Shown piece after piece: positions 7,049 to 52,406 of a stretch of 64,000 nt of DNA. Numbering within the stretch: position 1 is the first letter of the stretch; each line of letters begins with the position of its first letter. This DNA is from a plasmid. The notes beneath the pieces were generated by a model. It did not search any database, was not told the origin of the DNA, and worked only from the letters and a program-made list of their open reading frames with translations. The position numbers were made by a program, and so were the translations under genes. Location: sequence record NZ_MK262712.1; one strand, 5' to 3'.

Positions 7049-7053
7049 AAATT

Positions 7054-11774: not shown

Positions 11775-11794
11775 TCCGGATTTGTCAGTGAACG

Positions 11795-15008: not shown

Positions 15009-15017
15009 CTTGACCCC

Positions 15018-22303: not shown

Positions 22304-22430
22304 GGAACGCTCTGATCGTAGTTATGCCATAGTTACATCTAATGTATCCTATGAACAGAGCGTATTTTTCCCATTAAGGGAAGTATCTTCATTGAAATTC
22401 CCGTAAAACGGGAATGGCTGGACAGAAAAG

Positions 22431-23792: not shown

Positions 23793-24475
23793 CTGTAGTT
23801 ACTCATGTGCTTTGATGGATAGTGTGTCGCTAAAAATCATACCAAAAACAAAGTATTCCTACCTCAGCCAGAGTGAGAAAAAGTTAACTTTCGCTCTGAA
23901 CCTGTAGGTTTATCTAATCTTAGCTTAACATGTAAGCTACCGATATCTGCACCGCTCATAATTCTAAGGGCTCGTATTATTCACTTGTTGAACTAGATCA
24001 TCAATCGAAAGGAACACATTACAACGCGCCAAAAGTTACTTTTATCAGAATGCACACAATTTAGCTCGAATAAGAATCTGGATTGTGATTTGGTAACAGG
24101 ATCTTTAACTTTAGCAATCAGAGTATGCCTTGCTTTTACATTGCAGTATCACCATTTAAAACAATAAGTTATAACGAAACACCAAGTGTTTGATAACATG
24201 CATTTTCACTGGATCTGCGCTTACGAATGTGGCACTGAGGCAATTCTTTAACCTTGTAAAGAATGAGTGAGCCCGCGCTGGAGGTCAGACCTTTGGTTGC
24301 ATTTAAACCACGTGTGTTACATGCCTACATGGGAATGATTCTCATCAACTATTAAAAAGTCACTTTTACATAAATCTAACAATGTACTGAAAAAAAATAT
24401 TGTAAAAATAGCTTTTTTCCTCTCTGGCGACGTCATCACATCCCTCATAAATGTATGATCACACAGAGGTGATAA
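23793..24475. promoter_or_regulatory. 680-bp AT-rich divergent promoter region carrying palindrome-motif copies
   Basis: Separates divergent operons. Contains AAAAGTTACTTTTA (24031), AAAAAGTCACTTTTA (24355) and the near-match AAAAAGTTAACTTT (23878). Confidence 0.45.
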
Positions 24476-30395: not shown

Positions 30396-31253
30396 TTATT
30401 TGTTAAAGGGATTTTTAAGCAAAGGTTGTAAATTCAGTTTTAACCAGTTTTTATAATCAGTCGGTAATCCATTGCCCAACACTCCATCTTCACGAACTAC
30501 AGATGGGATGCCTTGAACGTTATAAATGGATGCCAGGTATAGACCTGTAACAATAGGTTCTACTGAACAATCTTTCAGATTTTCATGAGGAATAAGCCGG
30601 TTGTTTATATCTTCTGATTTTCCTAATAACGACTGAAGAATATCATAATTGGTAATTTTACCAGCTTTAACAGAGCACCACATTTGTTTTACCCGTTTAG
30701 CTGATTCGCCAGGGCTGGGTAAAATAACAATATCAAAGCGAACAAGTTCCCTTTCTTCATTCATCTTTTTCAGAAAGTCAATACAATCTTGACAATCAAG
30801 AGAAATGAATATAACTGCCTGTCGTTTGAGGGACGGATTCCCGAACTGGATAGTAAAGGCATCCTCAGGTTTGAACGGTGCTTCGTTCAATGGTAAAAAG
30901 TAACTTTCTCGGATATCTGATATCGATTGAACTTGTTTTTTCCTGAGAACATCATAAACTTTACCTTCTGAAAAAGAGTAGCGACCCGTTGTGGTAACTA
31001 GGGTGAGGCCACTTCGCTGATCCTCAAATAAAAAAATCCCACCCGTCGGTAAGTAGACAGCATCCTTTGGCTGGTAAGGACTAAGCTTGCTAACTAATCC
31101 CCTTGACGACTGATTTAAAGCGAGACCATTTTCAGCAGCAGCGCGTGTTAACGCCGCAGCTTCTGCATCATACTTATCAGCTGCAGCAGAATGAGTTGAA
31201 TTGAGTAGTGCTATACACACGAGCAACTTGATAAGTAACTTTCTCATAATCAC
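30396..31253 (-). CDS. Periplasmic thioredoxin-fold disulfide isomerase, DsbC/TrbB-like
   Basis: Signal peptide and a CxxC active site (SLDCQDCIDF). F-type systems carry a TrbB disulfide isomerase. Confidence 0.55.
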   Translation of the reverse strand: MIMRKLLIKLLVCIALLNSTHSAAADKYDAEAAALTRAAAENGLALNQSSRGLVSKLSPYQPKDAVYLPTGGIFLFEDQRSGLTLVTTTGRYSFSEGKVYDVLRKKQVQSISDIRESYFLPLNEAPFKPEDAFTIQFGNPSLKRQAVIFISLDCQDCIDFLKKMNEERELVRFDIVILPSPGESAKRVKQMWCSVKAGKITNYDILQSLLGKSEDINNRLIPHENLKDCSVEPIVTGLYLASIYNVQGIPSVVREDGVLGNGLPTDYKNWLKLNLQPLLKNPFNK

Positions 31254-33087: not shown

Positions 33088-33565
33088 TATATTGACCTTT
33101 ATTACTTGGTGGTAAATATCTCTTTACCCTCAATGACCTGACCTTTTCATCTATCTGCGGTACAGAGTAAGGAGGCTCAGCCCGTAAATTTTTGAAAACG
33201 TTATTTTCGAGTTGCTCATAGAACTGACTATCACTATCCAGTTCAATGTGAGGCAACTCTATTGCCTGTTCATTGGTTTTCTGATCAAGTGTGGTGATGC
33301 TTTTTTCATCAAAACTTTCATCCGGTTTTGAATCAAAGCTACCCTTTCGAGTGAAATCCTTATCAGATAGCAATTTGTCAGAGTCATATACCTTAAAATC
33401 ATCAAAGCCAGGGGGCGCTGATTCTTGCACTGTATATTCCGATGGCACAATTTGAACTATCGCGGTGCGTTCCTTTGCTAAATTCCCTATAAAAAACCCC
33501 ATCCCTAGACCGACACTGAACAAAATGCCCCAAGTGAAAATTGAAAAGTTACTTTTTTTTGTCAT
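33047..33565 (-). CDS. Membrane protein, 172 aa
   Basis: TM (NFSIFTWGILFSVGLGMGFFIGNL). ATGA overlap with the traK-like stop. Confidence 0.4.
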   Translation of the reverse strand: MTKKSNFSIFTWGILFSVGLGMGFFIGNLAKERTAIVQIVPSEYTVQESAPPGFDDFKVYDSDKLLSDKDFTRKGSFDSKPDESFDEKSITTLDQKTNEQAIELPHIELDSDSQFYEQLENNVFKNLRAEPPYSVPQIDEKVRSLRVKRYLPPSNKGQYNENFEAEGIVGRK

Positions 33566-34732: not shown

Positions 34733-35593
34733 TTATTGAGCTTCTGCTTCGTTCAGTTGCTTGTTCATATCGGTATTTTCAGTGAACTCTTTTTCCAATA
34801 CCTTCCCGTTAACTGTGACTTTTTTGATATTAGGGGTCCCTGAATACTGGTTCAGATACAGTATTCGAGGTCGCCCACTTTTCACACTCAAAACCATCTC
34901 GTAAGTCCAACGCTCAGTTTGTTCCTTATCAGAGACGTTTAGGAATTTAGTTTTGCGAGTACCCCATACATAAAGAACATTATCACTGGGTAAAAAGTTG
35001 ACGTCCTCTGCAACAAATGTTTGATCAACCTTTCTTGCAAGCATTAAATCCGAGGCTTTTTTGAGTTCTGCTTCTAACTCGCTCTGTTTAGATGCCGGAA
35101 ACATCTTAAGAATATAACTGGTAACGAAAGTAACATTTTTAGGGTTAATGTTCCCCAATGTGGTTGCTATAAATAGCCCCCATTGCGTCTTATATGACTC
35201 ACTTGCCTTACTTCCGGCTACGGAAACTTCCTCAGTCATATCCGGAGGGATGGCAATGACCTCAGTTGTGGAAAAAAAGACCACTTTAATTACCAAAAGG
35301 CCAGCAATCACCGTCAATAATCCATTGTTTAAGATTAATTTTTTGTCACGCTGAATTAACTGACTGTAGGTAAGTTCAGCACCCGTTTTCTTCCCTTTTT
35401 TAGGAGGCTCGAGTTCTTTTGACAAATTCAGGATGGACTTATGACGCTGAATTTTATCATTGCTGTAACTTTCAGTTTTTTCATACTGGACGTCGTCAGC
35501 CTCATCATCCTTTGATTTATCAACTGTCTTCTTCTTCGGTACAAACCTGAAGAAGTTCATGACGTTTTCTAAAAGTGACTTTTTCTCGTTCAT
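34733..35593 (-). CDS. trhE: TraE/VirB8-like T4SS protein (TrhE-like)
   Basis: Bitopic: cytoplasmic Lys-rich N-terminus, one TM (LLTVIAGLLVIKVVFF), periplasmic domain. Position. Confidence 0.55.
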   Translation of the reverse strand: MNEKKSLLENVMNFFRFVPKKKTVDKSKDDEADDVQYEKTESYSNDKIQRHKSILNLSKELEPPKKGKKTGAELTYSQLIQRDKKLILNNGLLTVIAGLLVIKVVFFSTTEVIAIPPDMTEEVSVAGSKASESYKTQWGLFIATTLGNINPKNVTFVTSYILKMFPASKQSELEAELKKASDLMLARKVDQTFVAEDVNFLPSDNVLYVWGTRKTKFLNVSDKEQTERWTYEMVLSVKSGRPRILYLNQYSGTPNIKKVTVNGKVLEKEFTENTDMNKQLNEAEAQ

Positions 35594-35982: not shown

Positions 35983-36015
35983 ATTGTTGTTTTGCTCGTT
36001 TAGCAAAAATTTTTT

Positions 36016-36438
36016 TTAAAGCACAACACCCGCATCAAGGAATCCGGTGATGATTTTTTCGCCGTTAGCCAAAATCATCATCATAAGGAATGAAACGAGT
36101 GCCAAACCCGGGTTCGGACGGCCGATGGAGAAGTAGAATGCAGAGATCAGCATACATGCGGCCAGGGCCTTCCCGGGCGCGCCACTTAAAGCTTCTGAAA
36201 GTTGGGTCCAAATTTCACCCAAGGCTCCGTCATCCCCGCCCGCCAAAGCAATAGATGAGAACAACGCAGCGCACAACAGCGCAATAAATACCTGGAACAT
36301 TTTATTGCTAAGCATATTACGCAGGCTTTCAGCCAGAGTGTAGTTAGCAGTAGTGCCGCTCATAGCCATTGATTTCTGGATCATTGTGAAACTCCTGAAT
36401 GCGAATATTGTATATGTGTTCTGGTGACTAACCAGCAA
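36016..36438 (-). CDS. trhA: Conjugative pilin precursor (TraA/TrhA-like)
   Basis: First gene of the traA-L-E-K-B order. Long leader, two hydrophobic segments, Ala/Gly-rich (AALFSSIALAGGDDGALGEIW...). An alternative start is at 36387. Confidence 0.6.
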   Translation of the reverse strand: MLVSHQNTYTIFAFRSFTMIQKSMAMSGTTANYTLAESLRNMLSNKMFQVFIALLCAALFSSIALAGGDDGALGEIWTQLSEALSGAPGKALAACMLISAFYFSIGRPNPGLALVSFLMMMILANGEKIITGFLDAGVVL

Positions 36439-36439
36439 T

Positions 36440-36870
36440 TGGAGAATACCCTGGGTTAATTTTTGATTTTCAAACTAAGGAACAAATTTTTTAAACAAAA
36501 AAGAGAAAACGCTGAAGTTATAAAAGTTACTTTTCAATGAGTTTTTTTCTTATCGACATGTCATTATCAATTAGTTACAAAATTCGCCCTGTTTCATTCA
36601 TTTCACTTTGCCAAAGAAAACATATTGATTTTAAAGTAGATTTTGACAACCTCTTTTCTCCCGTAATCCTTTTTATCCTCCTGTACATTCTTGGTTTCTT
36701 CGAAAAAGTCACTTTTTTGTCCATGCAAACACTGTTTTTGCGATCATAAAAGTAACTTTTGGACCTGATAAATTACGATGTCCTTTAAAAAAGTGACTAT
36801 TGGTCACCATCTTAATGTTCACTTCTTGAGCAAGGACAACCAGGGAGTTGAGAAAAGTCACTTTTTGGCT
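36440..36870. promoter_or_regulatory. Regulatory hub upstream of the pilin operon with five palindrome-motif copies
   Basis: AAAAGTTACTTTT (36521), AAAAAGTCACTTTTTT (36702), AAAAGTAACTTTT (36746), AAAAAAGTGACTATTGGTCAC (36786), AAAAGTCACTTTTT (36852). Confidence 0.55.
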
Positions 36871-37199
36871 GTGATACAGTTCAGGTGTTAATTTTCCCCT
36901 TCCAGCTTAACTACCATAATTAGTGGGTCATCAAAAGAGGCGCACAGATCCTCCAAAAATGGTCCTAGAATGTAGAGAAAATGGAGAAATTTTGAATAAT
37001 TTGTAACCCACATAACATATTGATCTTTAATAGTTTAATGTTATTTTTGGAATAATTATCTAAATGACTACGGTTACACATAGCACTTTGGAACATAATC
37101 AGCTATAGAAGATAAAACTTATGCTTTTACCCTCTTCCCATGGGCCATTTCTAAATGTAAATTTAGGAGAATTCTTATGTTTGTCATGAAAGGAATATC

Positions 37200-37514
37200 A
37201 TGAAAAGTCGGATGGTAGAGGTCGCTGGGTTAAATCTTAAAATTACCATACATAACAACATGTTAGCTTTGAGTTATAATATTGACGGGCTCAGTATTTA
37301 CAATTCAAGTCGTATTATTCGCAACTCAAAACTAACCGAATCTGAGATTTTCGCAAGAATTGACGCTGATTTGGTTAGCAAAGTTTTTTCTGTAAATATC
37401 AAGCAGATAAACAACATCGTACACTCTAATGTCTGCGTAATACCTATACAGACTCAAGCTAAACAGGTTAACTTTGCGGCTGGAGTAATGGCGTCTTGTT
37501 TCAAGAATTTCTGA
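37200..37514 (+). CDS. Hypothetical protein, 104 aa
   Basis: ORF only. Confidence 0.3.
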   Translation: MKSRMVEVAGLNLKITIHNNMLALSYNIDGLSIYNSSRIIRNSKLTESEIFARIDADLVSKVFSVNIKQINNIVHSNVCVIPIQTQAKQVNFAAGVMASCFKNF

Positions 37515-37643
37515 TTAATAGTCTAGATACCATAGGGATAATCGGAAGTATTATCGCTCCCCTGCTCGTGATGTCAGCTGGTTCTGGTGACATAAAAATA
37601 CCCCCTTACCTAGCGATCTTTTCCTGATAGGATAGGAATATTT

Positions 37644-38327
37644 GTGAGGGGGGTAAATATGTGGGTCACAAAAGATAATGAAATTATCTCAGATGCTGAA
37701 CCGGATTCAGACGGTTTTATGGAAGTTCGCCGTCCATGCCCTGACTGTTTAGGTTCAGGTATAAACTGCCTCCAGTGTGCGGGTTCTGGCTCATTGCCGG
37801 CTGTTATGGAAAAAGTATATCCTGTGTACGAGTGGGCTTCTAAAAACTCTCTACAGATGCCATTTAAATCACCTGAACAAGCACTTATTAAAAGCTTTCT
37901 TAAAGTTATTTTAGAGGCACCCAATCAGGGTAAAAGTAATTTTTACTCAGCACTCATCCAAAAATTGGATAAAAGTTACTTTCCTACAAAGTTACAATTT
38001 CGATGTCTGAAACCTAATGGATATAGAAAAAGTTCAGCAGTCAGCCTTCAAGTACGGCCCTTTACTGCCAAAATCGGTACCAAACTGTATCTGGCTCTCA
38101 CCGTAATTAAAATTCAGGTGCTCACCAGAAAATGTTCTTCTGAGAGTTTTTCATCTTTACTTTTGGAGACCTCTGACCACCGGCATTTTATTGCTTATGA
38201 TACGCACCCATCAGGGTTTATTCTTGGTAATATAATTAATTGCAATGTCCAAGTTGTTAAACGACTCTGGGTTAATAATATGAGTATATTGCTGGTGAAA
38301 ATGATTTCATCTTCTCTGATTAAGTGA
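37644..38327 (+). CDS. Hypothetical protein with N-terminal CxxC-x8-CxxC zinc-ribbon-like motif
   Basis: RRPCPDCLGSGINCLQCAGSGS. Confidence 0.4.
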   Translation: MRGVNMWVTKDNEIISDAEPDSDGFMEVRRPCPDCLGSGINCLQCAGSGSLPAVMEKVYPVYEWASKNSLQMPFKSPEQALIKSFLKVILEAPNQGKSNFYSALIQKLDKSYFPTKLQFRCLKPNGYRKSSAVSLQVRPFTAKIGTKLYLALTVIKIQVLTRKCSSESFSSLLLETSDHRHFIAYDTHPSGFILGNIINCNVQVVKRLWVNNMSILLVKMISSSLIK

Positions 38328-38382
38328 CAGTGGTTACCAAACACAAGTTATAAGTCTTTTAAAGAGGCAATACTTACTCGTT

Positions 38383-39147
38383 ATGAATAGTCATAAGAAT
38401 TACAAAGAGTTAGGGTTATTGCAGGATTTTTTTAGAAAAAACCATAAAGCTACCTTTAATTGTGATCAAAATAAAGTTGAGATCACCTCTAGTGATATCA
38501 CTCCACTTCTTGTTAAAGGTAAAAGTAACTTTCAACAGGCTAAGTTTTGTTTATCCGGACCGGTGATGCATTTACGGTATCAACCTTTATGGTTTGCTAT
38601 TTTGCTGGGACTGAACGCTAGACAACCAATCCATCAAGAACTTCAGTTCAGTATTTCACTTGTTGAACTTATAGAAAAATCGGGACGTGTTTGTCAGGCA
38701 CTCGGAATCAGGCAAGTCAACTATACACTTGCTGAAGTTTCTTACTTTTTGTTGCTACTCATAGAGTTCAGAATCGAGATACAAAAAAGTAATATCTGTC
38801 AGACCTGTTCGGTTTTTACAGAAATCAGTCACGATATAGATTTTCAGTCTATCAGCATGGCTAGTGTTACTATCAATCCTAGAGTGGTTGACAAACTTTG
38901 GGAACTGACTAATTCGGCGTCAGTTTTTTTGACAACTCTCTTTTTTGCCAAGCGCCCGGAACTATACAGCCTACTGCAAAAGTTACTTTCAAAAACTGAA
39001 GAGGTTTCCCTTAGCGACATTGCTCCTGCAACGTTTCAACACGTACAGTTGTTATGCCGTCATGGCCTCGTCACCTACACTAAAAAGCATAAAATACTTG
39101 ATATTCATAGTGTTAGTGTTTTAATTGAAGGCCTCCACCCATTGTAA
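38383..39147 (+). CDS. Hypothetical protein, 254 aa
   Basis: ORF in the divergent accessory operon. Confidence 0.4.
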   Translation: MNSHKNYKELGLLQDFFRKNHKATFNCDQNKVEITSSDITPLLVKGKSNFQQAKFCLSGPVMHLRYQPLWFAILLGLNARQPIHQELQFSISLVELIEKSGRVCQALGIRQVNYTLAEVSYFLLLLIEFRIEIQKSNICQTCSVFTEISHDIDFQSISMASVTINPRVVDKLWELTNSASVFLTTLFFAKRPELYSLLQKLLSKTEEVSLSDIAPATFQHVQLLCRHGLVTYTKKHKILDIHSVSVLIEGLHPL

Positions 39148-39274
39148 ACAACCAGTAAAAGTAACTTTCATAAAAAATTTACCAAACTGGCTTTTTTGAC
39201 CACATAGCGAGAAACTTTTACAAAATAATACTGTACAGTCTAATTTCAGGAATGGTTCAGTCATAGGTAAGAAA

Positions 39275-40453
39275 ATGAAACAAACAGCTGACTTTTTTAT
39301 CTCTACAGAGCGGAACGGGAGGCTAGTCAAAAATTTGCGTGAATTTAGTGACGCAAATCCTGACATTTGCCACAAAGCGGTTAATGGCCAACCGTTTATG
39401 ATCGACCCAAGGGCATTAGTGTTAGTTCCAAACTGGAACTGCCGTGAGATGGGTCTGGGAGAGGCATACTACAAATTACCTAAACCTGCCGAGCATATTC
39501 AGAATCTTAAAAAAGCATTTCTGAATGGGGCAGACATTGACCCTATAACTGTCGTTATTGTTGACGGTAAACCACTGGTTCGACAGGGGAACTGTCGTAC
39601 AAGAGCTGCGCTTTTGGCTCAACAAGAATCAGGTCTCCCCATCCTAGTTAGATTGCGTGAGTTCCAGGGTGACGAGATAGAACAAGAATGGCATTCTCTG
39701 GATGGGGCGAAATCTCTCCCCCTTTGCCCCGTAGGTCGCGGCATTGCCTATAGCAGACTGGTAAATGATGCCGGGATGTCTGTTGAGCAGGTTGCACAAC
39801 GGGAAAACATTTCTGAAATGGCAGTTCGCCAAATCATTTCTCTTGCAACCATCGATGACGAATTAAAGACGTTGATTAGTCAGGATGTTATTTCGTACAC
39901 ACTCTGTCTTGAATTAATTCGTGATCTTGGTGAAAAGGAAGCTCTTGATAAAATTCGGGCCGACCTAAACGCCAAGATAATGGTTATTAATAGTTCCACC
40001 GGGAGTGATACCCTTCCTCTGAATGTTGCCGAAATAATTAAGTCTCATGGTAGTCCTAAGGCTGTCAGGGTCACTAAATCTTCACTGGGAGTGCAACCAA
40101 TTCCTCGTAAACTGGCACAAAATCTCGCAGCCAGTACTAAAGAGGTTTGCAACAGATTACGAGCCTCCCTTCCCTCTTCGTTTGATCTCAATCAGATTGG
40201 ACCCAACGAAAAAATAAATATTGAAGTTGACAGACATCTAATTGAACTTATATTTAATTCAGATGACTCTATTCGTGGCCATGAAGCTAAGCTCGAGCGT
40301 AAAACAACAAAGGGAAAACTTTCTAGTTCTGCCCCATCAGTAACATCAGAGGTAAACTCTAATGCGCTGCCAGCTAATGATCCTATGGAGGAGCCCGCTT
40401 CAGAAAGTCAGGAAAATGAATTTTCGCTATTGAATTTACATTCCGCAGTTTGA
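39275..40453 (+). CDS. ParB/KorB-like DNA-binding protein (ParB N-domain-like plus HTH), 392 aa
   Basis: Degenerate ParB-box-like IVDGKPLVRQGNCRTRAALLA, HTH MSVEQVAQRENISEMAVRQIISLA, acidic C-terminal tail. It is distinct from the SopB-like ParB at 48131. Confidence 0.55.
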   Translation: MKQTADFFISTERNGRLVKNLREFSDANPDICHKAVNGQPFMIDPRALVLVPNWNCREMGLGEAYYKLPKPAEHIQNLKKAFLNGADIDPITVVIVDGKPLVRQGNCRTRAALLAQQESGLPILVRLREFQGDEIEQEWHSLDGAKSLPLCPVGRGIAYSRLVNDAGMSVEQVAQRENISEMAVRQIISLATIDDELKTLISQDVISYTLCLELIRDLGEKEALDKIRADLNAKIMVINSSTGSDTLPLNVAEIIKSHGSPKAVRVTKSSLGVQPIPRKLAQNLAASTKEVCNRLRASLPSSFDLNQIGPNEKINIEVDRHLIELIFNSDDSIRGHEAKLERKTTKGKLSSSAPSVTSEVNSNALPANDPMEEPASESQENEFSLLNLHSAV

Positions 40454-40817: not shown

Positions 40818-41339
40818 ATGTACAAGCCTTTTTCATTTGATTTAATTGTGTCATACATAACGAGATGGTGGGGCCTATCCATGACACATTCGAATGAAAG
40901 ATGGTATTCAGTTGACGGTCAGTTAATTGATAATAAACTTGTTTTCAATATTAATGAATTCAACGGCACTGCTCGGTACGAAAAAAATTTTATCTGCTCA
41001 TATTGTAAAGGCTCAGGTCGTCATCGTATCAGTTATGCAAATTCTTCAGGAAAATGTTCCGCGTGTAAAGGTACGGGCAAACAAGGTACCTTAATAAAAG
41101 AGTGTTTCACGCTTCAAATGCTTTTTAAAAAGAATTATCTAGCTGCTAAAAAGATTGTTTCTTCACGACACTGTCGTGAGAGTCAAGGAAAAAATTTATC
41201 AGCCCTTGAGAGACAAATCATGTCTTCAAGCAACAAAAACCCCTTCCTTAAAAGCCTTACGCTTACGATTCAAAGTGGTCGTCATCTTTCAACTAAGCAG
41301 ATTGCTGTAGCAGAAAGTATCCTTTCCCAACTTAGCTGA
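40818..41339 (+). CDS. Small protein with two DnaJ-type CxxCxGxG zinc-finger repeats
   Basis: CSYCKGSGRH ... CSACKGTGKQ. Confidence 0.4.
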   Translation: MYKPFSFDLIVSYITRWWGLSMTHSNERWYSVDGQLIDNKLVFNINEFNGTARYEKNFICSYCKGSGRHRISYANSSGKCSACKGTGKQGTLIKECFTLQMLFKKNYLAAKKIVSSRHCRESQGKNLSALERQIMSSSNKNPFLKSLTLTIQSGRHLSTKQIAVAESILSQLS

Positions 41340-41498
41340 ACCTCCGAGTTAAAATGTCACTATCAAAAGATGGTGACATTTCTTTCTTTTGCTCTCTTAT
41401 GTCGGAAACCCAAAAATTTCACATGATACTATTCTCGTATAGACCTATGAGTGTCTTTGAAAAGTAACTTTCGTGGCTTCTCACATAAAAGGTTTCCT

Positions 41499-43937
41499 AT
41501 GCGCTTTTCACTATTCTTAAATCATTTTGCTTTAGCTTTGAGTCTCTCAATAGCCACGAGCATGTTTTCCAACGCCCAGGCCCGGGTATACGAGTACACC
41601 TTTACAGATATCAATGGGGCGCAAAAAAGTGTCCCTGAAAGTGCGCCCTATCTTAATCCACATGGGAATTTTAACGCTCTCCTCATTGGTGGCTTGGACC
41701 AACAAATCCGCTTAACCGTAACTCGCGATGCTGATAACAGTGCTGTTTACAGCACAACAACAAGTATCATCTCTGTTGATGACAGGATTTCTTCCGCTAA
41801 TGGAAATATGTTTTACGGAAAGACTGTCACTATTCCACCTATCAGTGATGGTCGTTACACCATAAAATCTGAGATTTTAGACTCAAAATCGACCGTTGTT
41901 TCAACAACATCCCATCCTTTTATAATAGATACGGTAGGCCCTACGTCTGATAACTTCTCTGTACCATGGATTCCTGGGTACAACATGGTTGTAACGGGAC
42001 CTCGCTGGGAACTTGGCCAAGGTCAAGAATCTGCCATAAATCTTGCAATTAAGAATATCAATGATCTATCTGGTTTTGATAAGGCTATTGTTCAAATAAT
42101 AAAACCAGATGGATCAATACAATCCAGCTATACGATGGCCTACGACGATGGGTCAAGAGCTGCTACAGCCCCTATAACTAAAGGTGGTGGAGCGATAGCT
42201 AAAGCTACATGGATGCCAGTGTCGGATGCCGATGTAGAGTTTCGCTTTCGAGCATTCCTTTATGATAAAGCCGGAAATGTTACTCAAGTCCCCGACCAAA
42301 AATTTGTATTTGATTCTTCTGCAGGTGAATATGAGCTATTTGCAGTTGCAGACCCCAATTCTTCAACTAGTGTTGTTCCCGGCATTTCGTCTGGCTACAT
42401 TAAATATTCAGCAGGGATGACTGTTAATACTAACCCTGTTACTCTTGTGTACAAGATTCCCAAACATAATTATAGGGCTTATAACAAAGCTGGTTTATCC
42501 TTCGGTTCTTTGCTTACTGAAGATAATAGTTATGTATATATAAAACAATCCACCCCAGTTGGTACATCATTTACTATTCATAATGGATACCAATACGGAG
42601 GAGGTAACGCTTCGTATAATGTTAAGTTAAGTTCAATCGCTCCGAAATCCCCATCAATAAAATCCTACTCAGCAAACTTTTCAACAATTGGCGATTTTTC
42701 TGCTGGCACAATGAAATTCACAAACATAGATTTGCCAGGTGAGTATCAAAGTATAACTGTGTTTGTAGACCCTAGGGATTATGTGCAGTCATTTTATAAC
42801 CTTACACAAGGCTACGAAGTTTGTACTATTGAGCCCGGAGAAAGTTCTTGCACTGGTCCTTTTTCATACGCAATAAATAAGGGGAATGGTTACATAGCTC
42901 ATTATTTTATAGTTCGCAATCAAGATAAGACACTTACATCAAATCAATTTGAGATTCGTAGCATCTGGAATACGGATTTAATACCTAAGATCACAGGGTA
43001 TGATTACAAAGAAGAGAATAAATCTGTCCTTGTTTATGTCACACAACCCGGCAATGGCAATTGGCGTGATGTCTTGATGCTTTCTAAGCTAGAGATACTG
43101 GATACAATTTCTAATACGGTTCTTCTGACGGGCACAAAAGCCGCGATGTCTGGAGAGGACTATACTTATGCATTTGATTTATCGGCTATACCTGAAGGGA
43201 AGTATGATTTAACCTTCAGGGCCACTGATACTTTTAACAACAGTTCTCAGTTGCCGTTCAGATCTCTTATTATAGATAACTCCCCTCCTTCAATTTCATT
43301 TTCGTATGAAGGGAAACCACTGTTATCAGAAAGTACAGTCTATGGATTAGAAAACATCTCAGTAGCTGTATCTGATGCTTTAAGTAAGTCCAAGATCTCT
43401 CAAATGGTTCTTCAAGGAGGCCCTGCATCAGATGATGTAGAATTAGGATTTACCCATAACACAGATGGTTCATACACACCACTTTATCCTCGTTTGTTTC
43501 CTTCACTTGATGAAAAAACTGATAAATACACACTTGTAGTTAAAGCTATAGATGATGCAGGTAATGAGTCATCAAAATCTATCCGTTTTGCATATTATCC
43601 TAAGAATCTCATTGTTCTTGATAAACTTAATACCCTTGCGGTTAACAAACCTTTAAACCTTTCTTCAGGTGAACCTCTGGCTGTTCTTAAAGCAAGTCAG
43701 TTACGCCGTAATGATGGTTCCTTAGCAAAAGGCGTACAGACAGCTTTAATTACTGTTAGGGGTGACTCAGCATTCCCAATTAGTGTTAATGGAAACCTTG
43801 TTTCTCCAGGTGAAACGAAAGAAATTCAAATAGATTTAGGTTCTGTAGGAAATGACGTTGTTGTCCCTATATTCCCAGGAGTATCTGGCGTTGTCGGTGC
43901 CTCCGGTTTTATTGTTGAATTCCCTCAACTAAAATAA
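41499..43937 (+). CDS. Exported ~810-aa surface protein, paralogue A of a four-member family
   Basis: Signal peptide ...SMFSNAQA|RVYEYTF. The C-terminal ~200 aa are highly similar to paralogues B-D and end in IVEFPQLK. Palindrome motif at 41458 in the 5' UTR. The ORF track starts at 41451. Confidence 0.65.
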   Translation: MRFSLFLNHFALALSLSIATSMFSNAQARVYEYTFTDINGAQKSVPESAPYLNPHGNFNALLIGGLDQQIRLTVTRDADNSAVYSTTTSIISVDDRISSANGNMFYGKTVTIPPISDGRYTIKSEILDSKSTVVSTTSHPFIIDTVGPTSDNFSVPWIPGYNMVVTGPRWELGQGQESAINLAIKNINDLSGFDKAIVQIIKPDGSIQSSYTMAYDDGSRAATAPITKGGGAIAKATWMPVSDADVEFRFRAFLYDKAGNVTQVPDQKFVFDSSAGEYELFAVADPNSSTSVVPGISSGYIKYSAGMTVNTNPVTLVYKIPKHNYRAYNKAGLSFGSLLTEDNSYVYIKQSTPVGTSFTIHNGYQYGGGNASYNVKLSSIAPKSPSIKSYSANFSTIGDFSAGTMKFTNIDLPGEYQSITVFVDPRDYVQSFYNLTQGYEVCTIEPGESSCTGPFSYAINKGNGYIAHYFIVRNQDKTLTSNQFEIRSIWNTDLIPKITGYDYKEENKSVLVYVTQPGNGNWRDVLMLSKLEILDTISNTVLLTGTKAAMSGEDYTYAFDLSAIPEGKYDLTFRATDTFNNSSQLPFRSLIIDNSPPSISFSYEGKPLLSESTVYGLENISVAVSDALSKSKISQMVLQGGPASDDVELGFTHNTDGSYTPLYPRLFPSLDEKTDKYTLVVKAIDDAGNESSKSIRFAYYPKNLIVLDKLNTLAVNKPLNLSSGEPLAVLKASQLRRNDGSLAKGVQTALITVRGDSAFPISVNGNLVSPGETKEIQIDLGSVGNDVVVPIFPGVSGVVGASGFIVEFPQLK

Positions 43938-44204: not shown

Positions 44205-46450
44205 ATCCCGTTATTCGCAGCTACATCCCGGAAGCCTCTAAATTCTGATGATGCCCCACATATGCAGTACGATCCCTGTTCGCAGTCGTATATCTTAAGC
44301 CTCAGCGGATTCCTGATGCGCAGCAGCTGAAAACAACCCCCTTGTTCGCAGTCAGATACCTTAAGCCTCATCAGTCTCCTGATGTGCAGCAGTTGAAAAC
44401 AACCCCGTAGTTCGCAGTCGGATACCAGAGTCACAGCAGACTCATAATGTGCAGCTGGTGAAAACAACCCCGTTGTTCGCAGTCGGATACCAGAAGCCAC
44501 AGCAGACACATAATGTGCAGCCGGTGAAAACAATCCCGTTGTTCGCAGTCAGATACCTCCAGCCTCATCAGCCCCCCGATGCGCAGCAAGTAAAACCCCA
44601 TGTTCGCAGACGCATACCTGAAGCCACAGCAGACTCATGATGTGCAGGAGGTGAAGACAACCCCGTTGTTCGCAGGCTGATACCTGAAGCCACAGCAGAC
44701 TCATAATGTGCAGCCGGTGAAAACAACCCCGTTGTTCGCAGTCGGTTACCAGAAGCCACAGCAGACTCATAATGTGCAGCCGGTGAAACAACCCCGTTGT
44801 TCGCAGTCGGATACCTCCAGCCTCATCAGACTCCCGATGCGTAGCAAGTTAACCCCCCTCAGCTTGTCCGCAGTCGGATACCCGAAGCCACCACAGACTC
44901 ATGATGTGCAGCAGGTGAATACAACCCCGTTGTTCGCAGTCGGATACCAGAAGCCACAGAAAACTCATAATTTGCAGCCGGTGAAAACAACCCCGTTGTT
45001 CGCAGTCGGTTACCAGAAACCACAGCAGACTCATAATGTGCAGCCGGTGAAAACAACCCCGTTGTTCGCAGTCGGTTACCAGAAACCACAGCAGACTCAT
45101 AATGTGCAGCCGGTGAAAACAATCCCGTTGTTCGCAGTCAGATACCTCCAGCCTCATCAGCCTCCCGATGCGCAGCAAGTTAAACCCCATGTTCGCAGTC
45201 GGATACCAGAAGCCACAGCAGACTCATTATGTGCAGCTGGTGAATACAACCCCGTTGTTCGCAATCGGATACCAGAAGCCACTGCAGACTCATGATGTAC
45301 AGCATGTGATAACAATTCCCTGTTCGCAGTCAGATACCTCCATCCTCATCAGACCCTTGATGCGCAGCAAGTTAAACCCCCTCAGCTTGTCCTCATTTGG
45401 TTACCTGAAGTCTCTTCAGGCTACCGATGTGTAGCCAGTTAAACCCCTTGTTCGCAGACGCATACCTGAAGCCACAGCAGACTCATAATGTGCAGCCGGT
45501 GAAACAACCCCGTTGTTCGCAGTCGGATACCTCCAGCCTCATTAGACTCCCGATGCATAGCAAGTAAACCCCCCTCAGCTTGTCCGCAGTCGGATACCCG
45601 AAGCCACCACAGACTCATGATGTGCAGCAGGTGAATACAACCCCGTTGTTCGCAGTCGGATACCAGAAGCCACAGCAGACTCATAATGTGCAGCCGTTGA
45701 AAACAACCCCGTTGTTCGCAGGCTGATACCTGAAGCCACAGCAGACTCATAGTGTGCAGCCGGTGAATACAAACCCGTTGTTCGCAGGCTGATACCTGAA
45801 GCCACAGCAGACTCATAGTGTGCAGCCGGTGAAAACAACCCCGTTGTTCGCAGTCGGTTACCAGAAGCCACAGCAGACTCATGATGCGTAGCGAGTTAAA
45901 ACAACCCCCTTGTTCGCCGTCATTAAGTGAAGCCTCTACTGACTGATGAAGTTCAGCCAGTGAATACAACGCCGTTATTCGTAGTCGTTACGTGAAACCT
46001 CAGCGGATGAATGATGTGCAGCCGGTGAAAACAACCTCGTTGTTCGCACTATACTCATGTGAGCCTCTCGTAACTCCCGAAGCCCCATAGATGATTTCAA
46101 CTCCTTTTTATAAAATCGGCTATCTGAATCCTCAGACTATTCCAGATATCTTGCAGATAAAACCATCCCGCTGTCTGTTCGCAGTCGGCTATCTTAAGCC
46201 TTATCAGATTCCTGATGCTTGCAGGTGTAAAAATCCTTTTGTTCGTAATCGGATCCAAGGATTCTCTGGACACCCATGAAGTCCACAGATGAAATGCAAC
46301 TCCGCTGTTCGCAGTCTGGTCATGCGTGCCCATGGAGACTCATGAAGCCCCACAGATGCAATCAAACAACGTTTCACAAAGTCGGTATCAGAATCCACAG
46401 AAGAATCCTAATGCCTTGTAGATGAAAACCCATTGTTCGTAGTCGGCAAT
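44205..46450. repeat. Tandem array of about 34 x 66-bp repeats (candidate centromere/iteron array)
   Basis: Period of exactly 66 (for example 44981 to 45047). The consensus unit GTGAAAACAACCCCGTTGTTCGCAGTCGGATACCAGAAGCCACAGCAGACTCATAATGTGCAGCC contains the inverted repeat AACAAC-ccc-GTTGTT. Two alternating unit subtypes. Edge units are more degenerate. Confidence 0.85.
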
Positions 46451-49480: not shown

Positions 49481-49862
49481 GTTTCTTGTTGCTCTTGAAA
49501 CCTTCTGGTGCACCGTTATGATTATACAACCAGCCTAACTAGTTAGGGCTGCGCCCAGCCTACTCACGAATAACCCTGACAATGTACCGTCCTAAAGAAC
49601 TCTATAACCCTTATACTGGGGGAGGGGGCAACACCAACTAACGGGTCTGATCATGTCGAAATTCGACTCTGATCATTTCTGGAAAATTTCCAGCAAAGCT
49701 GGTATCTATTGCCCTGATGTGAAAATTAACCTATCTGGTGGGTAGTTAGAAAGTTACTTTTTATTGTTACTTTCTATAGTTAGACGATGAATCTATGCCT
49801 AACGTCCCTAATCAGTATGAACCTGATCAGGGCACATTTTTTGATTAATGCATGTTACTTGG

Positions 49863-52268
49863 TTACTTGATTTGCGGAAATTCGATTATGAAATTGCTTT
49901 CCCCTGTAGAACCGTTTTCTGCTGTGAAAATAGGAACAGTTGAGTTTTCACCGGTTCCAAGGTCTATCTGAATTTCTTTTGTCTCCCCGGGATGAATAAC
50001 GTTCCCAAGGATGTTTATCGCATAATCTGCGTCCTTCCTGACCGTGATGTTTGCCGTTTGTATACCCTTAGCCAGTGAGCCATCGTTACGTCGTAGCTGT
50101 CCCGTCCGCATGACGGCCAACGGTGTGTTGTCACTGGTTTTTAGCGCCTTTACAACACCCAAAGTTTTCAGCTTCTCAAGGGTGACCAGGTTTTTTGGGT
50201 AATAGGCGAACTGAATGCTTTTTTGAGTAGTGTTACCTTTCGCGTCGGTAGCATATGCGGTTAGTGTATATTTGTCCGTGTTTGCATCCAGACTGGGGAA
50301 GAGACGAGGGTAATCAGGTGTATAACTACCGTCCGTATTCTGGTTAAACCCCAAGATAACGCTATCCGACGCTGGTCCTCCTTTAAGTTCAAGTCTGACA
50401 AGGCTGGGTGCTGTTAACTCATCATTTAGCGTTATACTGATGTTCTCAAGCCCGAAAACAGTAGCACCGGGGGATAGCGGCGCATTTTCATATTTAAAAT
50501 TAACAACAGGAGGTGTCTTGTCGTTAATCAGATTTATGAATGGTGATGAAGTTTCATTGTTAAAGCTGTCCTTTGCCAGAAAGCCTAAATTGTATTTACC
50601 TTCGGCCAGTTTGCTGAGATCAAAACTATATGTGTAATCCTCGCCAGATAGAGCTGTTTGGATACCTGACAGTAGTTGGTCCCCGGTATCTGAATCAATC
50701 AGAGCAGCAGATTTGAGTTGCAACAAATCGCGGAATTTTCCGCGCCCTGGTTGCGTCACAAATAAGAGTACAGTTTTGTTTTCCTCTTGGTAACTGTATC
50801 CGGTTATTTTGGGTAAAAGATCAGTGTTCCAGTGATGTCTCTTTTCTACGGTGACTGATGAAAGGGTTTTATCCATATCAGTCAATTTGAAGGCATAAGT
50901 TGTAATACCATTACCTGATTTTGGAATAGACCATGATACCGCACCGGTACACTCAGTCTCACCAGCTGGTATCTGACATATCTCAGTGTTTCCACTCATC
51001 GCCCTCTGACCATAATTTCGTGGAGACGCAGTGATCCTTACAGAACTGAATTTCACGGGCAGATCTATGGTATCCCAAAGGTAGCTACTCGAATTCATTT
51101 CTCCTTTTTTATCTGAAGTTAACCATACTTCAGGTGCTGCCGGGCTGGCCGGAGCCTCACTTCCTAAATTGATATTATAGGAGAGTGAGCCTCCACCCCA
51201 TTGATATCCGTTATGGATGACGTAAGCTACCTTATAGGCCGTTTTCGCGGATACATAACTGTATCCATTCGCTTCGGAAATAATTGTGCCAAATTTCAAA
51301 CCAGCTTTACTGTATTCCCTTCGATTATTCGATGGAACCCTGTACACGAGTGTTAAAGGGTTTTGGTTAACGGTCATTCCCGGCTTATATGCTATGTAAC
51401 CTTCACTAAATCCCGGAACTACGCTTGTTTTAGAAGTCGGGTCATAAACAGCAAATAAAGTATATTCACCAAGATCTGAGTCAAATATGAACTTCTGATC
51501 CGGCAAAACTTTACGGTTTCCCGCTTTATCATAGAGCGTCACACGGAAACGATATTCCACATCAGCGTTTGATACAGGCATCCATGATGACCGACTCATA
51601 TTCCCTTTTGTCCACGGTATTGAAAGGGATGCTGATCCACTGTCATAAACCATATCTGTAGTTGAAAAAACAGTATCATCAGGTTTTATCACCTGAATAG
51701 TCGCTTTATCAAAACCGGTGGCAGATTTGACGTTTTTCACATTCAGGTACAGCTTTGCTTCAGCCCCGAGGCCCAGTTCCCAACGCTCACCTGTTAAGAC
51801 CATATCATATCCGGGGTTTTGGTCCACGCTCAGGTTATCTGACGAAGGCCCTACAGTATCAATAATAAAATTGTGAGACGTGCTGTCGATAACAGTGTTT
51901 TGAGTATTCAGGATATCTGACGTTATTACATAACTTCCATCACTCAGTGGTGGCAATGTCAGCGTTTTACCATAAAATTCTTCACCAGTTGATGCCTTTA
52001 TACGGTCATTGACCGTCACGCTCTCAGTAGTAAAGCTATATACTCCAACATTGTCTTTCTTTACTGTTACCTGAATTTTTCTGTCGAGTCCCGATATTAT
52101 TCTTACCTGAATTTTTTCATTGGTATTTAGGATACCTGCTTCCGCACTGACTGATTTATCCGTTCCATAGACATCCTTGAATACATATTCATACACACGA
52201 GCATATGAGGGGAGTGAAAAAGCGGAGAGGGCAATTAGTATTAAAGTAGTCTGTAAATTAATTTTCAT
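49863..52268 (-). CDS. Exported 801-aa surface protein, paralogue B
   Basis: Signal peptide MKINLQTTLILIALSAFSLPSYA|RVYEY. C-terminus IIEFPQIK. Palindrome at 52313 in the 5' UTR. Confidence 0.7.
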   Translation of the reverse strand: MKINLQTTLILIALSAFSLPSYARVYEYVFKDVYGTDKSVSAEAGILNTNEKIQVRIISGLDRKIQVTVKKDNVGVYSFTTESVTVNDRIKASTGEEFYGKTLTLPPLSDGSYVITSDILNTQNTVIDSTSHNFIIDTVGPSSDNLSVDQNPGYDMVLTGERWELGLGAEAKLYLNVKNVKSATGFDKATIQVIKPDDTVFSTTDMVYDSGSASLSIPWTKGNMSRSSWMPVSNADVEYRFRVTLYDKAGNRKVLPDQKFIFDSDLGEYTLFAVYDPTSKTSVVPGFSEGYIAYKPGMTVNQNPLTLVYRVPSNNRREYSKAGLKFGTIISEANGYSYVSAKTAYKVAYVIHNGYQWGGGSLSYNINLGSEAPASPAAPEVWLTSDKKGEMNSSSYLWDTIDLPVKFSSVRITASPRNYGQRAMSGNTEICQIPAGETECTGAVSWSIPKSGNGITTYAFKLTDMDKTLSSVTVEKRHHWNTDLLPKITGYSYQEENKTVLLFVTQPGRGKFRDLLQLKSAALIDSDTGDQLLSGIQTALSGEDYTYSFDLSKLAEGKYNLGFLAKDSFNNETSSPFINLINDKTPPVVNFKYENAPLSPGATVFGLENISITLNDELTAPSLVRLELKGGPASDSVILGFNQNTDGSYTPDYPRLFPSLDANTDKYTLTAYATDAKGNTTQKSIQFAYYPKNLVTLEKLKTLGVVKALKTSDNTPLAVMRTGQLRRNDGSLAKGIQTANITVRKDADYAINILGNVIHPGETKEIQIDLGTGENSTVPIFTAENGSTGESNFIIEFPQIK

Positions 52269-52406
52269 ATCAAATTATTAATCCAAAAAATTCGTGAAGT
52301 TTATGCCTTGGAGAAAGTTACTTTTTTCTGATTGCATGCTTTTAACAACACCATTTGGTACGAAACGCCACCAGCCCCACATAGCAGAGGCGGTGGCCGT
52401 CGATAG

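Follow-up and report, generated by a model that had tools for sequence, protein, structure and literature searches.

A 13-bp palindrome dispersed over the IncHI plasmid backbone and clustered upstream of the pilin operon in a pNDM-MAR-type plasmid

Among the major carriers of resistance genes are the IncHI plasmids, for example R27, IncHI2 plasmids with mcr-1 and, in Klebsiella, IncHI1B plasmids of the pNDM-MAR type; HtdA, TrhR and TrhY are known to control their transfer. In the IncP-1 plasmids RK2/RP4, the KorB operators OB (TTTAGCSGCTAAA) are bound by the ParB-family global regulator KorB, and the network of the IncW plasmid R388 contains repeated operator sets for StbA, ArdK, KorA and others. 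SetCD and AcaCD boxes are strand-specific, those of SetCD extending over about -53 to -33, and both kinds overlap or abut the -35 element; the AcaCD peaks seen by ChIP-exo are all intergenic, and 11-19 promoters per element depend on AcaCD or SetCD (PMC4207636, PMC4344509, PMC4542580). IncHI plasmids share with the AcaCD/SetCD elements the MOBH/MPF_F transfer-system lineage and the response of most of the backbone to the circuit. No cis-acting site for HtdA, TrhR or TrhY was found defined in the searchable literature.

The window, meaning the whole stretch of 64,000 nucleotides of NZ_MK262712.1 that was analysed, corresponds to the Tra2 region of a Klebsiella IncHI1B plasmid of the pNDM-MAR type. 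Analysis of this window and of other IncHI plasmids revealed a 13-bp motif, AAAAGTNACTTTT (core RAAAGT-N-ACTTTY), that is real, restricted to IncHI plasmids, conserved between and inside genes and enriched in intergenic DNA. The motif probably serves as the operator for a regulator that acts across the whole plasmid. Sequence-string and topic searches of the searchable literature found no description of the motif; an earlier description is possible. Conservation over all IncHI lineages makes the motif a direct experimental handle, as a bait for its binder and as a mutation target at the pilin operon, and a cheap sequence signature of IncHI backbone DNA. It may also account for the derepression of most of the plasmid upon HtdA loss.

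Distribution of the motif in the window and among plasmids

The window contains 16 perfect copies of AAAAGTNACTTTT, whereas shuffled sequence would give 0.05; when one mismatch is allowed, 34 copies were counted and 0.53 expected. The motif has sharp boundaries, its flanks being devoid of information, and the composition by position around 238 motif arms gave no signal beyond the 13-mer. Among close pairs of copies, nine of 29 show a spacing of 39-44 bp, which is the favoured distance. Density is 0.25-0.5 per kb, with one copy per 2-4 kb along the backbones of all the IncHI resistance plasmids that were examined. Intergenic DNA holds 15 of 33 copies in the window, compared with a non-coding share of 13% (p=6e-6); about half of all copies are intergenic, and the distance of these to gene starts is variable.

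Copies occur throughout the Tra2 region. A one-mismatch copy lies in the intergenic DNA downstream of the trhI helicase homologue (2815-2827), and two copies lie within that gene, the one at 3599-3611 aligning with an R27 copy and the one at 3917-3929 being absent from R27. The 5' part of the ORF 9270-9641 holds a one-mismatch copy (9569-9581), and a further one-mismatch copy (10544-10556) is paired at 17 bp with a perfect one (10561-10573). The core copy GAAAGTAACTTTC within trhN (14563-14575) aligns with an R27 copy. Three copies are kept in both R27 and pKOX_R1: that at the trhW/trhU junction, 8-20 nt into trhU (16036-16048), and those within rsp about 3200 nt (19094-19106) and about 960 nt (21335-21347) from its start. 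Perfect copies are found at the 5' end of trhW (17379-17391), at the 3' end of the htdK homologue (22426-22438) and within it (22650-22662), in the divergent promoter region of htdA (AN operon) and trhO (Z operon) (24031-24043), and 115 nt before the gene that opens the Z operon (24355-24367). Closer to the pilin gene, a one-mismatch copy lies within the htdT/dsbC homologue (30896-30908), and perfect copies lie at the trhK/htdO junction (33544-33556), where IncHI2 and IncHI5 also have a copy, and 10-22 nt into trhE (35571-35583).

Beyond the pilin region, one-mismatch copies are present in the ORF 37644-38327 (37932-37944 and, 39 bp further, 37971-37983) and in the ORF 38383-39147 (38521-38533 and 38978-38990). 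The Ig-like genes are likewise accompanied by one-mismatch copies: 9-21 nt into the gene 41451-43937 (41460-41472), in the intergenic DNA downstream of the first 801-aa Ig-like gene (49749-49761), and 51 nt upstream of the gene 49863-52268 (52313-52325), 44 nt upstream of 52407-54812 (54850-54862) and 85 nt upstream of 54948-57353 (57432-57444). Two perfect copies 41 bp apart (58236-58248 and 58277-58289) form a pair between a gene for an NYN-domain protein and the ORF 58307-58726, and the core copy GAAAGTTACTTTC lies 17 nt upstream of an HNH-endonuclease gene (60364-60376).

Comparison between plasmids revealed 46 copies in R27 (IncHI1), with none in Tn10 or the citrate island. Sampled transfer regions of about 41 kb gave nine copies in IncHI2, nine in an IncHI1A-like plasmid and 22 in IncHI5, and sampled regions of 30-41 kb from MOBH relatives (IncC, Photobacterium and Vibrio plasmids) gave 0-1 copies. 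In R27, 22 of the 46 copies are intergenic, compared with 20% non-coding DNA (p=3e-5), and 24 are intragenic. The intergenic copies lie 53-464 nt from gene starts, and those at 117441, 117523 and 122058 fall between convergent genes. Intergenic copies are conserved islands within DNA of 73-78% identity. Inside genes, five of the eight alignable copies stand at the same codon positions in R27 at a nucleotide identity of only 52-69%, against a background coincidence of 4.8% (binomial 1.3e-5).

Analysis of over-represented plasmid-wide words in R27 intergenic DNA found only this motif and the RepHI1B iterons, and no second plasmid-wide motif beyond those iterons. An assignment of the motif itself to replicon iterons was rejected, as it is palindromic and dispersed rather than made of direct repeats beside a rep gene; the true iterons are separate from it, being TACCCGGTATAGTGGAT around RepHI1B and a 43-bp array adjoining repHI1A. 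When 185,579 species genomes were scanned for paired sites, 44 loci came up, most of which are chance matches in A/T-rich genomes, and they gave no clue to the binder. A Klebsiella grimontii contig among these loci is probably IncHI-derived, and in two Colwellia genomes a pair of this motif precedes recA.

The five-copy cluster upstream of the pilin gene

Five palindromes before the pilin gene had been noticed in a sequence-only reading of this DNA, and our analysis found them to be real: four are perfect copies of AAAAGTNACTTTT and one is degenerate, between 36522 and 36865. Five copies within 400 bp is the window maximum, as that reading had held; at 34 copies in 64 kb, the Poisson probability of this is about 3e-6 for a stretch of 400 bp. 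It had named the right sites at 36521, 36702, 36746, 36786 and 36852, with positions 1-3 nt off only because flanking A's had been counted in; the perfect 13-mers start at 36522, 36704, 36748 and 36853 and the one-mismatch AAAAGTGACTATT at 36789.

Copy 1 (AAAAGTTACTTTT, perfect, 36522-36534) has its centre 144 nt upstream of the pilin ATG and, by alignment, is kept in the 96% lineage, in the 78% lineage (with one mismatch) and in the IncHI5 lineage. Copy 2 (AAAAGTCACTTTT, perfect, 36704-36716) is kept in the 96% and 78% lineages and is degenerate in pKOX_R1. Copy 3 (AAAAGTAACTTTT, perfect, 36748-36760) follows at 44 bp, and the decayed copy 4 (AAAAGTGACTATT, one mismatch, 36789-36801) at a further 41 bp. 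Copy 5 (AAAAGTCACTTTT, perfect, 36853-36865), 64 bp from copy 4, is invariant across all four aligned lineages.

Copy 4 overlaps a lineage-specific hairpin, GTGAC-tattg-GTCAC, which a scan for terminator-like structures flagged on the - strand. This inner palindrome had been described as the core of a variant copy; it is present, but it is unconserved in the 78%-identity lineage and in pKOX_R1, and the aligned position in pKOX_R1 carries a perfect AAAAGTCACTTTT. Hence, the copy at 36789 is a decayed ordinary copy rather than a variant of a special kind. In the MatP site matS (GTGACRNYGTCAC), the arms GTGAC and GTCAC are exactly 3 bases apart; matS was rejected for this variant, as its spacer is of 5 bases and the sequence is unconserved.

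The cluster lies in an 815-bp gap that separates the trhA (pilin) operon from a divergently oriented one. The first ORF of this divergent operon (104 aa, 37200-37514, + strand) occurs in the IncHI3 and IncHI5 lineages and is absent from R27. The trhA-type pilin gene (36016-36384, - strand) is the first of the trhA-L-E-K-(htdO)-B-...-V-C operon according to RefSeq for the identical plasmid, and residues 75-140 of the long ORF are 62% identical to R27 TrhA. A gene start at 36438, as previously read, is the TTG of the longest ORF and gives way to the RefSeq start at 36384 (ATG, 122 aa). Alignments revealed a strongly conserved leader before this ATG (36385-36485, - strand), with a hairpin CTGGT-tagtc-ACCAG and a -10-like TATTCT; the latter, about 50 nt before the ATG, is common to all lineages and lies 90-430 nt downstream of the copies. 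A weak sigma-70-like match directed toward the pilin gene (TTATCA, 17-bp spacer, TATGAT; 36743-36771, - strand) is the sole such match with a copy, copy 3, in its spacer. Six sigma-70-like matches occur in the pilin-upstream region compared with 4.2 in shuffles, i.e. without excess, and this match is hence a lead only.

R27, IncHI2 and the IncHI1A-like plasmid have one perfect copy 247-291 nt upstream of trhA, which identifies the five-copy array as a feature of the IncHI3/IncHI5 lineage. At least one copy lies upstream of trhA in every IncHI lineage examined, and hence a role at this operon in the binding of a regulatory protein is likely. The array may be a local amplification of a single ancestral copy. 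Its four to five copies, 41-64 bp apart and close to whole helical turns, may favour cooperative binding and high occupancy where the trhA-trhC pilus/T4SS operon and the divergent operon begin. The cluster had been proposed as the main control point of pilus and T4SS expression. What stands of this is that the copies are real, non-random and conserved upstream of trhA; the motif is, however, plasmid-wide. An operator special to the pilin promoter is contradicted by the 34 copies in the window and the 46 in R27, about half of them inside genes. Moreover, outside the window, plasmids of this type have six perfect copies upstream of a ParB-like gene, a cluster at least as dense. The thermoregulation of H-type transfer had been named as fitting a complex operator region; none of the present analyses connected the motif with it.

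Candidate binding proteins and alternative explanations

The motif may be the operator of a plasmid-encoded DNA-binding protein of two-fold symmetry with a regulon spanning the IncHI backbone, and a ParB/KorB-like paralogue is the favoured candidate; this reading is given slightly less than an even chance. The most likely binder, we infer, is one of the ParB/KorB-like HTH paralogues carried by every IncHI plasmid. Such a protein would act like KorB of IncP plasmids, through many 13-bp palindromes at variable promoter distances, intragenic sites included, and would keep the expression of backbone and transfer genes low; on its release from HtdA, the TrhR/TrhY activator would overcome this repression.

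The candidate family is represented in the window by a ParB/KorB-like HTH protein of 392 aa (39275-40453, + strand), which matches PHROG 1033 'ParB-like partition protein' (E=4.8e-23) and TIGR00180 (E=7e-8) and aligns to Spo0J, including the GxxRxxA box. ParB-like proteins of IncHI plasmids match PHROG 1033 with E values of 5e-23, 1e-23 and 1e-17 and contain GxxRxxA and DGNRxLxLSPV boxes. With Pfam HTH_ParB (cut-off 22.6 bits), the R27 and IncHI2 paralogue scored 25.5 and 26.6 bits and the window protein 22.2 bits, just under the cut-off. The AlphaFold model of the window protein (pLDDT 49.5, just 13 close homologues) was too poor for a fold search.

R27 carries three ParB-like paralogues. The copy AAAAGTAACTTTC (39157-39169) lies 112 nt upstream of the window gene, and a copy 105-112 nt upstream is found in three lineages (perfect in the 78% lineage, and present in pKOX_R1). 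A second paralogue, encoded outside the window, has copies at -100 and -218 in R27 (gene 92336-93541); its orthologues have copies at -96 and -222 in IncHI2 and six perfect copies from -116 to -864 in IncHI3. Other genes with conserved upstream copies include trhA, trhR and htdT, and a copy in this position therefore fails to set the regulator apart from them. Against a ParB-like binder, moreover, R27 R0042, the orthologue of the window protein, has no copy nearby, and the recognition helices vary by lineage (KTEQHLRQMVRV versus VSVTHVRKLLKV, with ISEMAVRQIISL in the window protein) while the motif is identical.

In a fuller and more doubtful form of this proposal, a ParB-family paralogue, possibly acting as a CTP-dependent clamp, would silence the whole backbone from about 50-100 AAAAGTNACTTTT sites, conserved intragenic ones among them, in a KorB-like system of IncHI plasmids, and an FlhDC-like TrhR/TrhY-HtdA circuit on top would make transfer dependent on temperature and growth phase. 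If true, global transcriptional control of the ParB type would have a second, independent example in a major family of resistance plasmids.

TrhR/TrhY, which appears FlhDC-like, is the main rival binder. The motif would then be the DNA box of a TrhR/TrhY master activator counteracted by HtdA, and TrhR/TrhY bound at each copy would switch on the adjacent promoter, in the manner of AcaCD in the related IncA/C plasmids and of SetCD in SXT/R391 elements; we consider this rather unlikely. In R27 the F, H, AC and Z operons are activated by TrhR and TrhY together, and 139 of 181 expressed genes are derepressed without HtdA (PMC7366339). A regulator of this type needs many sites, and the present motif is the only plasmid-wide one found. 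Published arrays for the Tra2 region of R27 have the units directly downstream of intergenic copies, which are the most strongly derepressed, up 8-61-fold in the htdA mutant, and the site-free parAB, parMR and R0004 of R27 at about 1-2.4-fold, i.e. not derepressed. This pattern makes a TrhR/TrhY-responsive element the more economical account and counts against the ParB reading. In addition, an offset scan of 272 arms gave a modest peak of -10-like hexamers exactly 16 nt from the motif centre (about 12 arms compared with a mean of 4 per offset), which suggests that the motif lies over the -35 region; the copy at 52313 has a -10-like TAAACT at this distance.

The promoter regions of the R27 F and Z operons, however, have no copy even at two mismatches, though both are TrhR/TrhY-dependent, and the R operon has a copy at -81, yet is reported to be unresponsive to HtdA. 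The form and placement of the motif also speak against such a box, since it is a compact perfect palindrome with half of its copies inside genes and some at start-codon junctions or between convergent genes. The resemblance to FlhC/FlhD is weak (pLDDT 57 for the model; E=0.46 for TrhR aligned to FlhD by hhalign), and no copy is near E. coli flhDC, which was checked in view of the reported motility crosstalk. Neither Pfam nor NCBIfam gave a match for TrhR, TrhY, HtdA or the divergent-operon proteins, and searches of solved structures with TrhY and with a TrhR profile returned nothing useful. HtdA itself was rejected as binder: it is acidic, nothing about it suggests that it binds DNA, and its reported action on TrhR/TrhY is between proteins.

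Comparably improbable is the operator of another DNA-binding protein, belonging to the IncHI backbone or, less likely, to the enterobacterial host. Many IncHI backbone proteins are without annotation, and the pair upstream of recA in Colwellia implies that unrelated proteins are able to use the motif sequence. A host factor leaves unexplained both the restriction to IncHI and the absence from MOBH relatives in the same hosts, and no regulator of E. coli is known to have this consensus. R27 carries the motif but lacks the divergent-operon proteins (37200-39147), which excludes these as binder.

The pilin-upstream copies are very unlikely to be relics of a replicon-associated repeat array without a regulatory role of their own. 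The trhA-repHI1A region of R27 is a 43-44-bp tandem array whose units carry a degenerate motif-like AAAGGCAxCTT; copies 2-4 of the window have the same 41-44 bp spacing, and the spacer of copies 2 and 3 holds CCATGCAAACACTGTTTTT, a sequence similar to the core of the R27 unit. The window, however, has no detectable tandem array, conservation is higher in the cluster copies than in the DNA separating them, and the dispersal of the motif plasmid-wide, far from rep genes and at conserved intragenic positions, is beyond what an array relic can explain.

Chance or an RNA-level structure (terminator or REP-like repeat) has next to no probability and is refuted by counts 60- to 300-fold above shuffles and by conservation: the motif is A/T-rich on an A/T-rich plasmid and one terminator-like hairpin overlaps copy 4, but that hairpin is lineage-specific, a palindrome with a one-base centre is unable to form a hairpin, a G+C-rich stem is absent, and no Rfam family matched the pilin-upstream region.

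Comparison with described regulatory systems

In R388, short repeated boxes join transfer, maintenance and establishment genes into few regulons, and the IncHI motif would act likewise; the R388 boxes differ in being few, confined to promoters and each assigned to a known small repressor. Centromeres of the parS type are palindromic, like the motif, and are bound by HTH dimers of the ParB family, to which the candidate binders belong. They differ in clustering beside par operons, whereas the motif is absent around parAB; the array of 27 units of 66 bp at 44277-46048 is likely the Par1 centromere and is distinct from the motif.

Comparison with AcaCD/SetCD revealed that in both cases one motif stands before many transfer operons (traL/pilin, dsbC, traN and the traI side) and non-transfer genes, and that both have a two-subunit master activator, TrhY being weakly FlhC-like. 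Unlike the directional boxes of about 20 bp, the IncHI motif is a symmetric 13-mer; half of its copies are intragenic, their distances to genes vary, and they are missing from two TrhR/TrhY-dependent promoter regions of R27.

With regard to KorB and OB, the operator sequences are unrelated, no KorA-like partner is known for IncHI, and IncHI plasmids have 46 to about 100 copies each and three ParB-like paralogues. The KorB likeness of the IncHI proteins refers to their membership of the ParB family. The arrangement is nevertheless similar: a palindrome of 13 bp whose central base is free or semi-free is present in about a dozen or more copies over the plasmid, at about 0.2-0.5 per kb, and the copies overlap promoters, sit 80-200 bp or more away from them, or lie inside genes. 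Furthermore, IncHI plasmids encode ParB-family HTH proteins besides the partition ParB, and copies are found upstream of the candidate regulator's own gene.

Palindromes upstream of the pilin gene

Analysis of the pilin-upstream region (36440-36870) revealed four perfect copies of the 13-bp palindrome AAAAGTNACTTTT, starting at 36522, 36704, 36748 and 36853, and a one-mismatch copy, AAAAGTGACTATT, starting at 36789 (copy 4). This bears out the five palindromes proposed in the sequence-only reading, whose coordinates were off by 1-3 nt because flanking A's had been counted in. Measured from the annotated pilin ATG, the copy centres lie 144, 326, 370, 411 and 475 nt upstream, with spacings from copy to copy of 182, 44, 41 and 64 bp. 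Five copies in 400 bp represent the maximum for the window (Poisson approximately 3e-6 per stretch), in agreement with the claim that this is its densest cluster. Across the 64 kb, 16 perfect copies were found against 0.05 expected from dinucleotide-preserving shuffles, and 34 copies with at most one mismatch against 0.53 expected. Mismatches are tolerated almost exclusively at the outermost positions of the 13-mer, which leaves RAAAGT-N-ACTTTY as the core. At its centre about 80% of copies have A or T, and positions outside the motif carry no information content. Adjacent copies prefer a spacing of 39-44 bp (nine of the 29 pairs closer than 250 bp), an excess that stays significant once orthologous pairs are discounted.

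Many Klebsiella plasmids typed IncHI1B/MOBH/MPF_F match the region 36000-38000 at 100% identity, and pNDM-MAR (NC_016980.1) matches the intergenic region alone at 99.8%. To the left of the cluster lie the pilin gene trhA (36016-36384, RefSeq annotation), trhL, trhE, trhK, an htdO-like gene, trhB, an unnamed ORF, htdT/dsbC, trhV and trhC, and farther left the Z operon and the htdA-trhN (AN) operon. On the right, three unannotated genes form a divergent operon; after it come a 392-aa protein annotated as DNA-binding and then Ig-like proteins, a tandem array of 27 copies of 66 bp, parA and parB. This array (44277-46048, upstream of parA at 46884) carries AACAA-N5-TTGTT palindromes, which occur 49 times in pKOX_R1 (IncHI5); its probable role is that of the Par1 centromere or of an incompatibility array. 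At 49863-57353, paralogous genes for three 801-aa Ig-like proteins lie in tandem, each with one motif copy 44-92 nt upstream. Compared with the plasmid matching the remainder, positions 1-16000 are a mosaic, with 92-94% identity or no match (approximately 4900-11857).

Alignment of the pilin-upstream region from four lineages (the window, its 96% and 78% relatives, and IncHI5, with about 73% across half the length) revealed the copies as invariant blocks amid diverged sequence. The palindrome GTGAC-tattg-GTCAC noted earlier at the 36789 variant is present in the window and lost in two of these four lineages, and pKOX_R1 holds a perfect AAAAGTCACTTTT where the window has the decayed copy. Next to the pilin ATG, 100 nt (36385-36485) show almost no variation across the IncHI3 and IncHI5 lineages; this leader contains a conserved hairpin, CTGGT-tagtc-ACCAG. 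All five lineages have a -10-like TATTCT/TATTAT about 50 nt ahead of the ATG, with TATTAT in IncHI1 and IncHI2. If this element is the operon promoter, the copies would act on it over an upstream distance of about 90-430 nt. A single sigma-70-like match encloses a copy: TTATCA-17-TATGAT, which has copy 3 in its spacer and is statistically indistinguishable from background. Overall, the pilin-upstream region is very likely regulatory.

A single perfect copy was found upstream of trhA in R27 (IncHI1, -287), IncHI2 (-247) and an IncHI1A-like plasmid (-291), against four to five in the IncHI3 and IncHI5 lineages, which indicates that the array is a lineage-specific expansion of an ancestral site. 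Just past its copy, between trhA and repHI1A (38377-39006), R27 has about 15 tandem units of 43-44 bp, each of them carrying CCATTCATGCAAATGCTTT and a degenerate motif-like AAAGGCAxCTT. No tandem array is detectable in the pilin-upstream region of the window. The spacer between copies 2 and 3 is similar to the core of the R27 unit, and the 41-44 bp spacing may therefore derive from an array of this type.

Spread and conservation of the motif in IncHI plasmids

In the 180 kb of R27, the 11-bp core AAAGTNACTTT was found 46 times; Tn10, the citrate island and the parAB region are free of it. Transfer regions of about 41 kb contained nine copies in IncHI2, nine in the IncHI1A-like plasmid and 22 in IncHI5 (pKOX_R1), and 17 copies were found in the Tra1 region of a pNDM-MAR-type plasmid. 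Among MOBH/MPF_F relatives sampled over 30-41 kb, IncC and Photobacterium had none and a Vibrio plasmid had one. The motif ranks among the two commonest palindromes in each IncHI locus and is the top one everywhere but in pKOX_R1. It is also the sole plasmid-wide over-represented 9-mer family in R27 intergenic DNA, where the only other over-represented word family comprises the TACCCGGTATAGTGGAT iterons around RepHI1B (52815-55302). On the oriT side of R27, between the H and R operons (108477-108577), the inverted repeats AAAAGTGACCCTA and TAGGGTCACTTTT have the motif half-site in common and a different inner half.

When every bacterial species, represented by a single genome, was searched for perfect copies paired at a distance of 15-45 bp, 44 loci emerged. 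Almost all are chance matches in genomes rich in A/T; one contig, from Klebsiella grimontii, probably derives from IncHI. In two Colwellia species a perfect AAAAGTWACTTTT pair, 28 bp apart, lies directly upstream of recA (L019, 1158-1198; L020, 6102-6142), a conserved regulatory element in which the motif sequence recurs in an unrelated setting.

Copies are enriched in non-coding DNA, both in R27 (22 of 46 copies vs 20% non-coding DNA, p=3e-5) and in the window (15 of 33 vs about 13%, p=6e-6). The distance from intergenic copies to the nearest start codon varies over 53-464 nt without a preferred value, and certain R27 copies fall between convergent genes (117441, 117523 and 122058). Despite the enrichment, half of the copies are intragenic, several of them 8-22 nt inside a gene start at within-operon junctions (trhW/trhU, trhK/htdO, trhE and R27 trhH). 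Window proteins share 30-79% identity with R27, and aligned coding DNA 45-69%. Protein-guided alignment of 17 orthologous gene pairs revealed that five of the eight alignable intragenic copies match an R27 copy at the exact aligned position (trhI, trhN, trhU and two in rsp; binomial 1.3e-5, with 4.8% of aligned 11-mers at least 10/11 identical as background). Our analysis shows that the motif is a conserved element specific to IncHI; symmetric and compact, it fits a protein dimer with two-fold symmetry. Full-text searches of the accessible literature by sequence and by IncHI regulation found no description of it. The interest lies more in this family-wide motif than in the five copies at the pilin promoter.

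Expression of R27 genes and candidate binding proteins

In R27, TrhR and TrhY jointly activate the F, H, AC and Z operons, HtdA opposes them at the protein level, and 139 of 181 expressed genes are released from repression in an htdA mutant at 25 degrees C (PMC7366339). Fold changes of mutant over wild type at that temperature (Table S4 of PMC7366339) were mapped to coordinates through the Tra2 gene order. Genes directly downstream of intergenic copies rose 61-fold (R0002), 28-fold (trhP), 14-fold (htdT), 8.5-fold (trhA) and 8.4-fold (R0045), and site-free backbone units changed 1.0-fold (parAB), 1.0- and 2.4-fold (parM and parR), 1.9-fold (R0004), and 3.4- and 1.5-fold (R0042 and R0043). The exceptions are the Z operon, up 8-17-fold without a promoter copy, and the R operon, which has a copy at -81 and is reported to be unresponsive to HtdA. 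Hence the motif marks the HtdA/TrhR/TrhY-responsive part of the backbone, not one-to-one.

ParB-family helix-turn-helix proteins are encoded in the window (39275-40453) and by R27 paralogues at 45191-46348 (R0042), 92336-93541 and 40890-41966. These proteins match PHROG 1033 (E=5e-23 to 1e-17), their GxxRxxA and DGNRxLxLSPV boxes align to Spo0J, and the 92336-type protein matches Pfam HTH_ParB above cut-off; the match to TIGR00180 is weak. Copies lie upstream of the 92336-type gene in R27 (-100, -218) and IncHI2 (-96, -222), and in three lineages one lies at about -110 relative to the window paralogue. In a pNDM-MAR-type plasmid (NZ_CP028791.1, L061 1622-2382), six perfect copies occur at -116 to -864 of the 92336-type gene, a cluster outside the window at least as dense as that at the pilin gene. 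Since the motif has KorB-operator-like features, a ParB/KorB-like paralogue is tentatively favoured as the protein that would bind it, with the pilin-upstream array serving as a putative cooperative high-occupancy site.

Binding by TrhR/TrhY themselves, the main rival, appears rather unlikely: it would be the simplest account of the htdA expression data and would suit the -10-like hexamer at a fixed offset beside a subset of copies, but the R27 F and Z promoter regions have no copies and intragenic copies fit it poorly. The searchable R27 literature names no binding site for TrhR, TrhY or HtdA, and none of the three matched Pfam or NCBIfam. An alignment of TrhR with FlhD covers the expected region and is non-significant, and HtdA is acidic without the look of a DNA-binding protein. 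It is quite possible, at a low probability, that some other protein binds the motif. Iteron, matS, terminator and Rfam explanations of the motif were each tested and rejected.

Comparison with known operator systems

The motif is classed as a putative dispersed plasmid operator family, whose nearest counterparts in working principle are the RK2 KorB/OB sites and the AcaCD/SetCD boxes. TrhR/TrhY are probably the IncHI counterpart of AcaCD and SetCD. Tested for two features that define the FlhDC-box kind, the IncHI sites proved neither all intergenic at -35 nor a directional box of about 20 bp. The AcaCD/SetCD boxes are directional and overlap the -35, and the motif resembles them less than it does KorB operators. 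Like the KorB operators of IncP, it is a compact palindrome of 13 bp whose centre is free, occurs 0.25-0.5 times per kb at variable promoter distance, has conserved intragenic copies together with copies between convergent genes, and has copies upstream of ParB-family genes. The IncHI system agrees with the KorB/OB kind in site form, in distribution and in the presence of ParB-family proteins on the plasmid.
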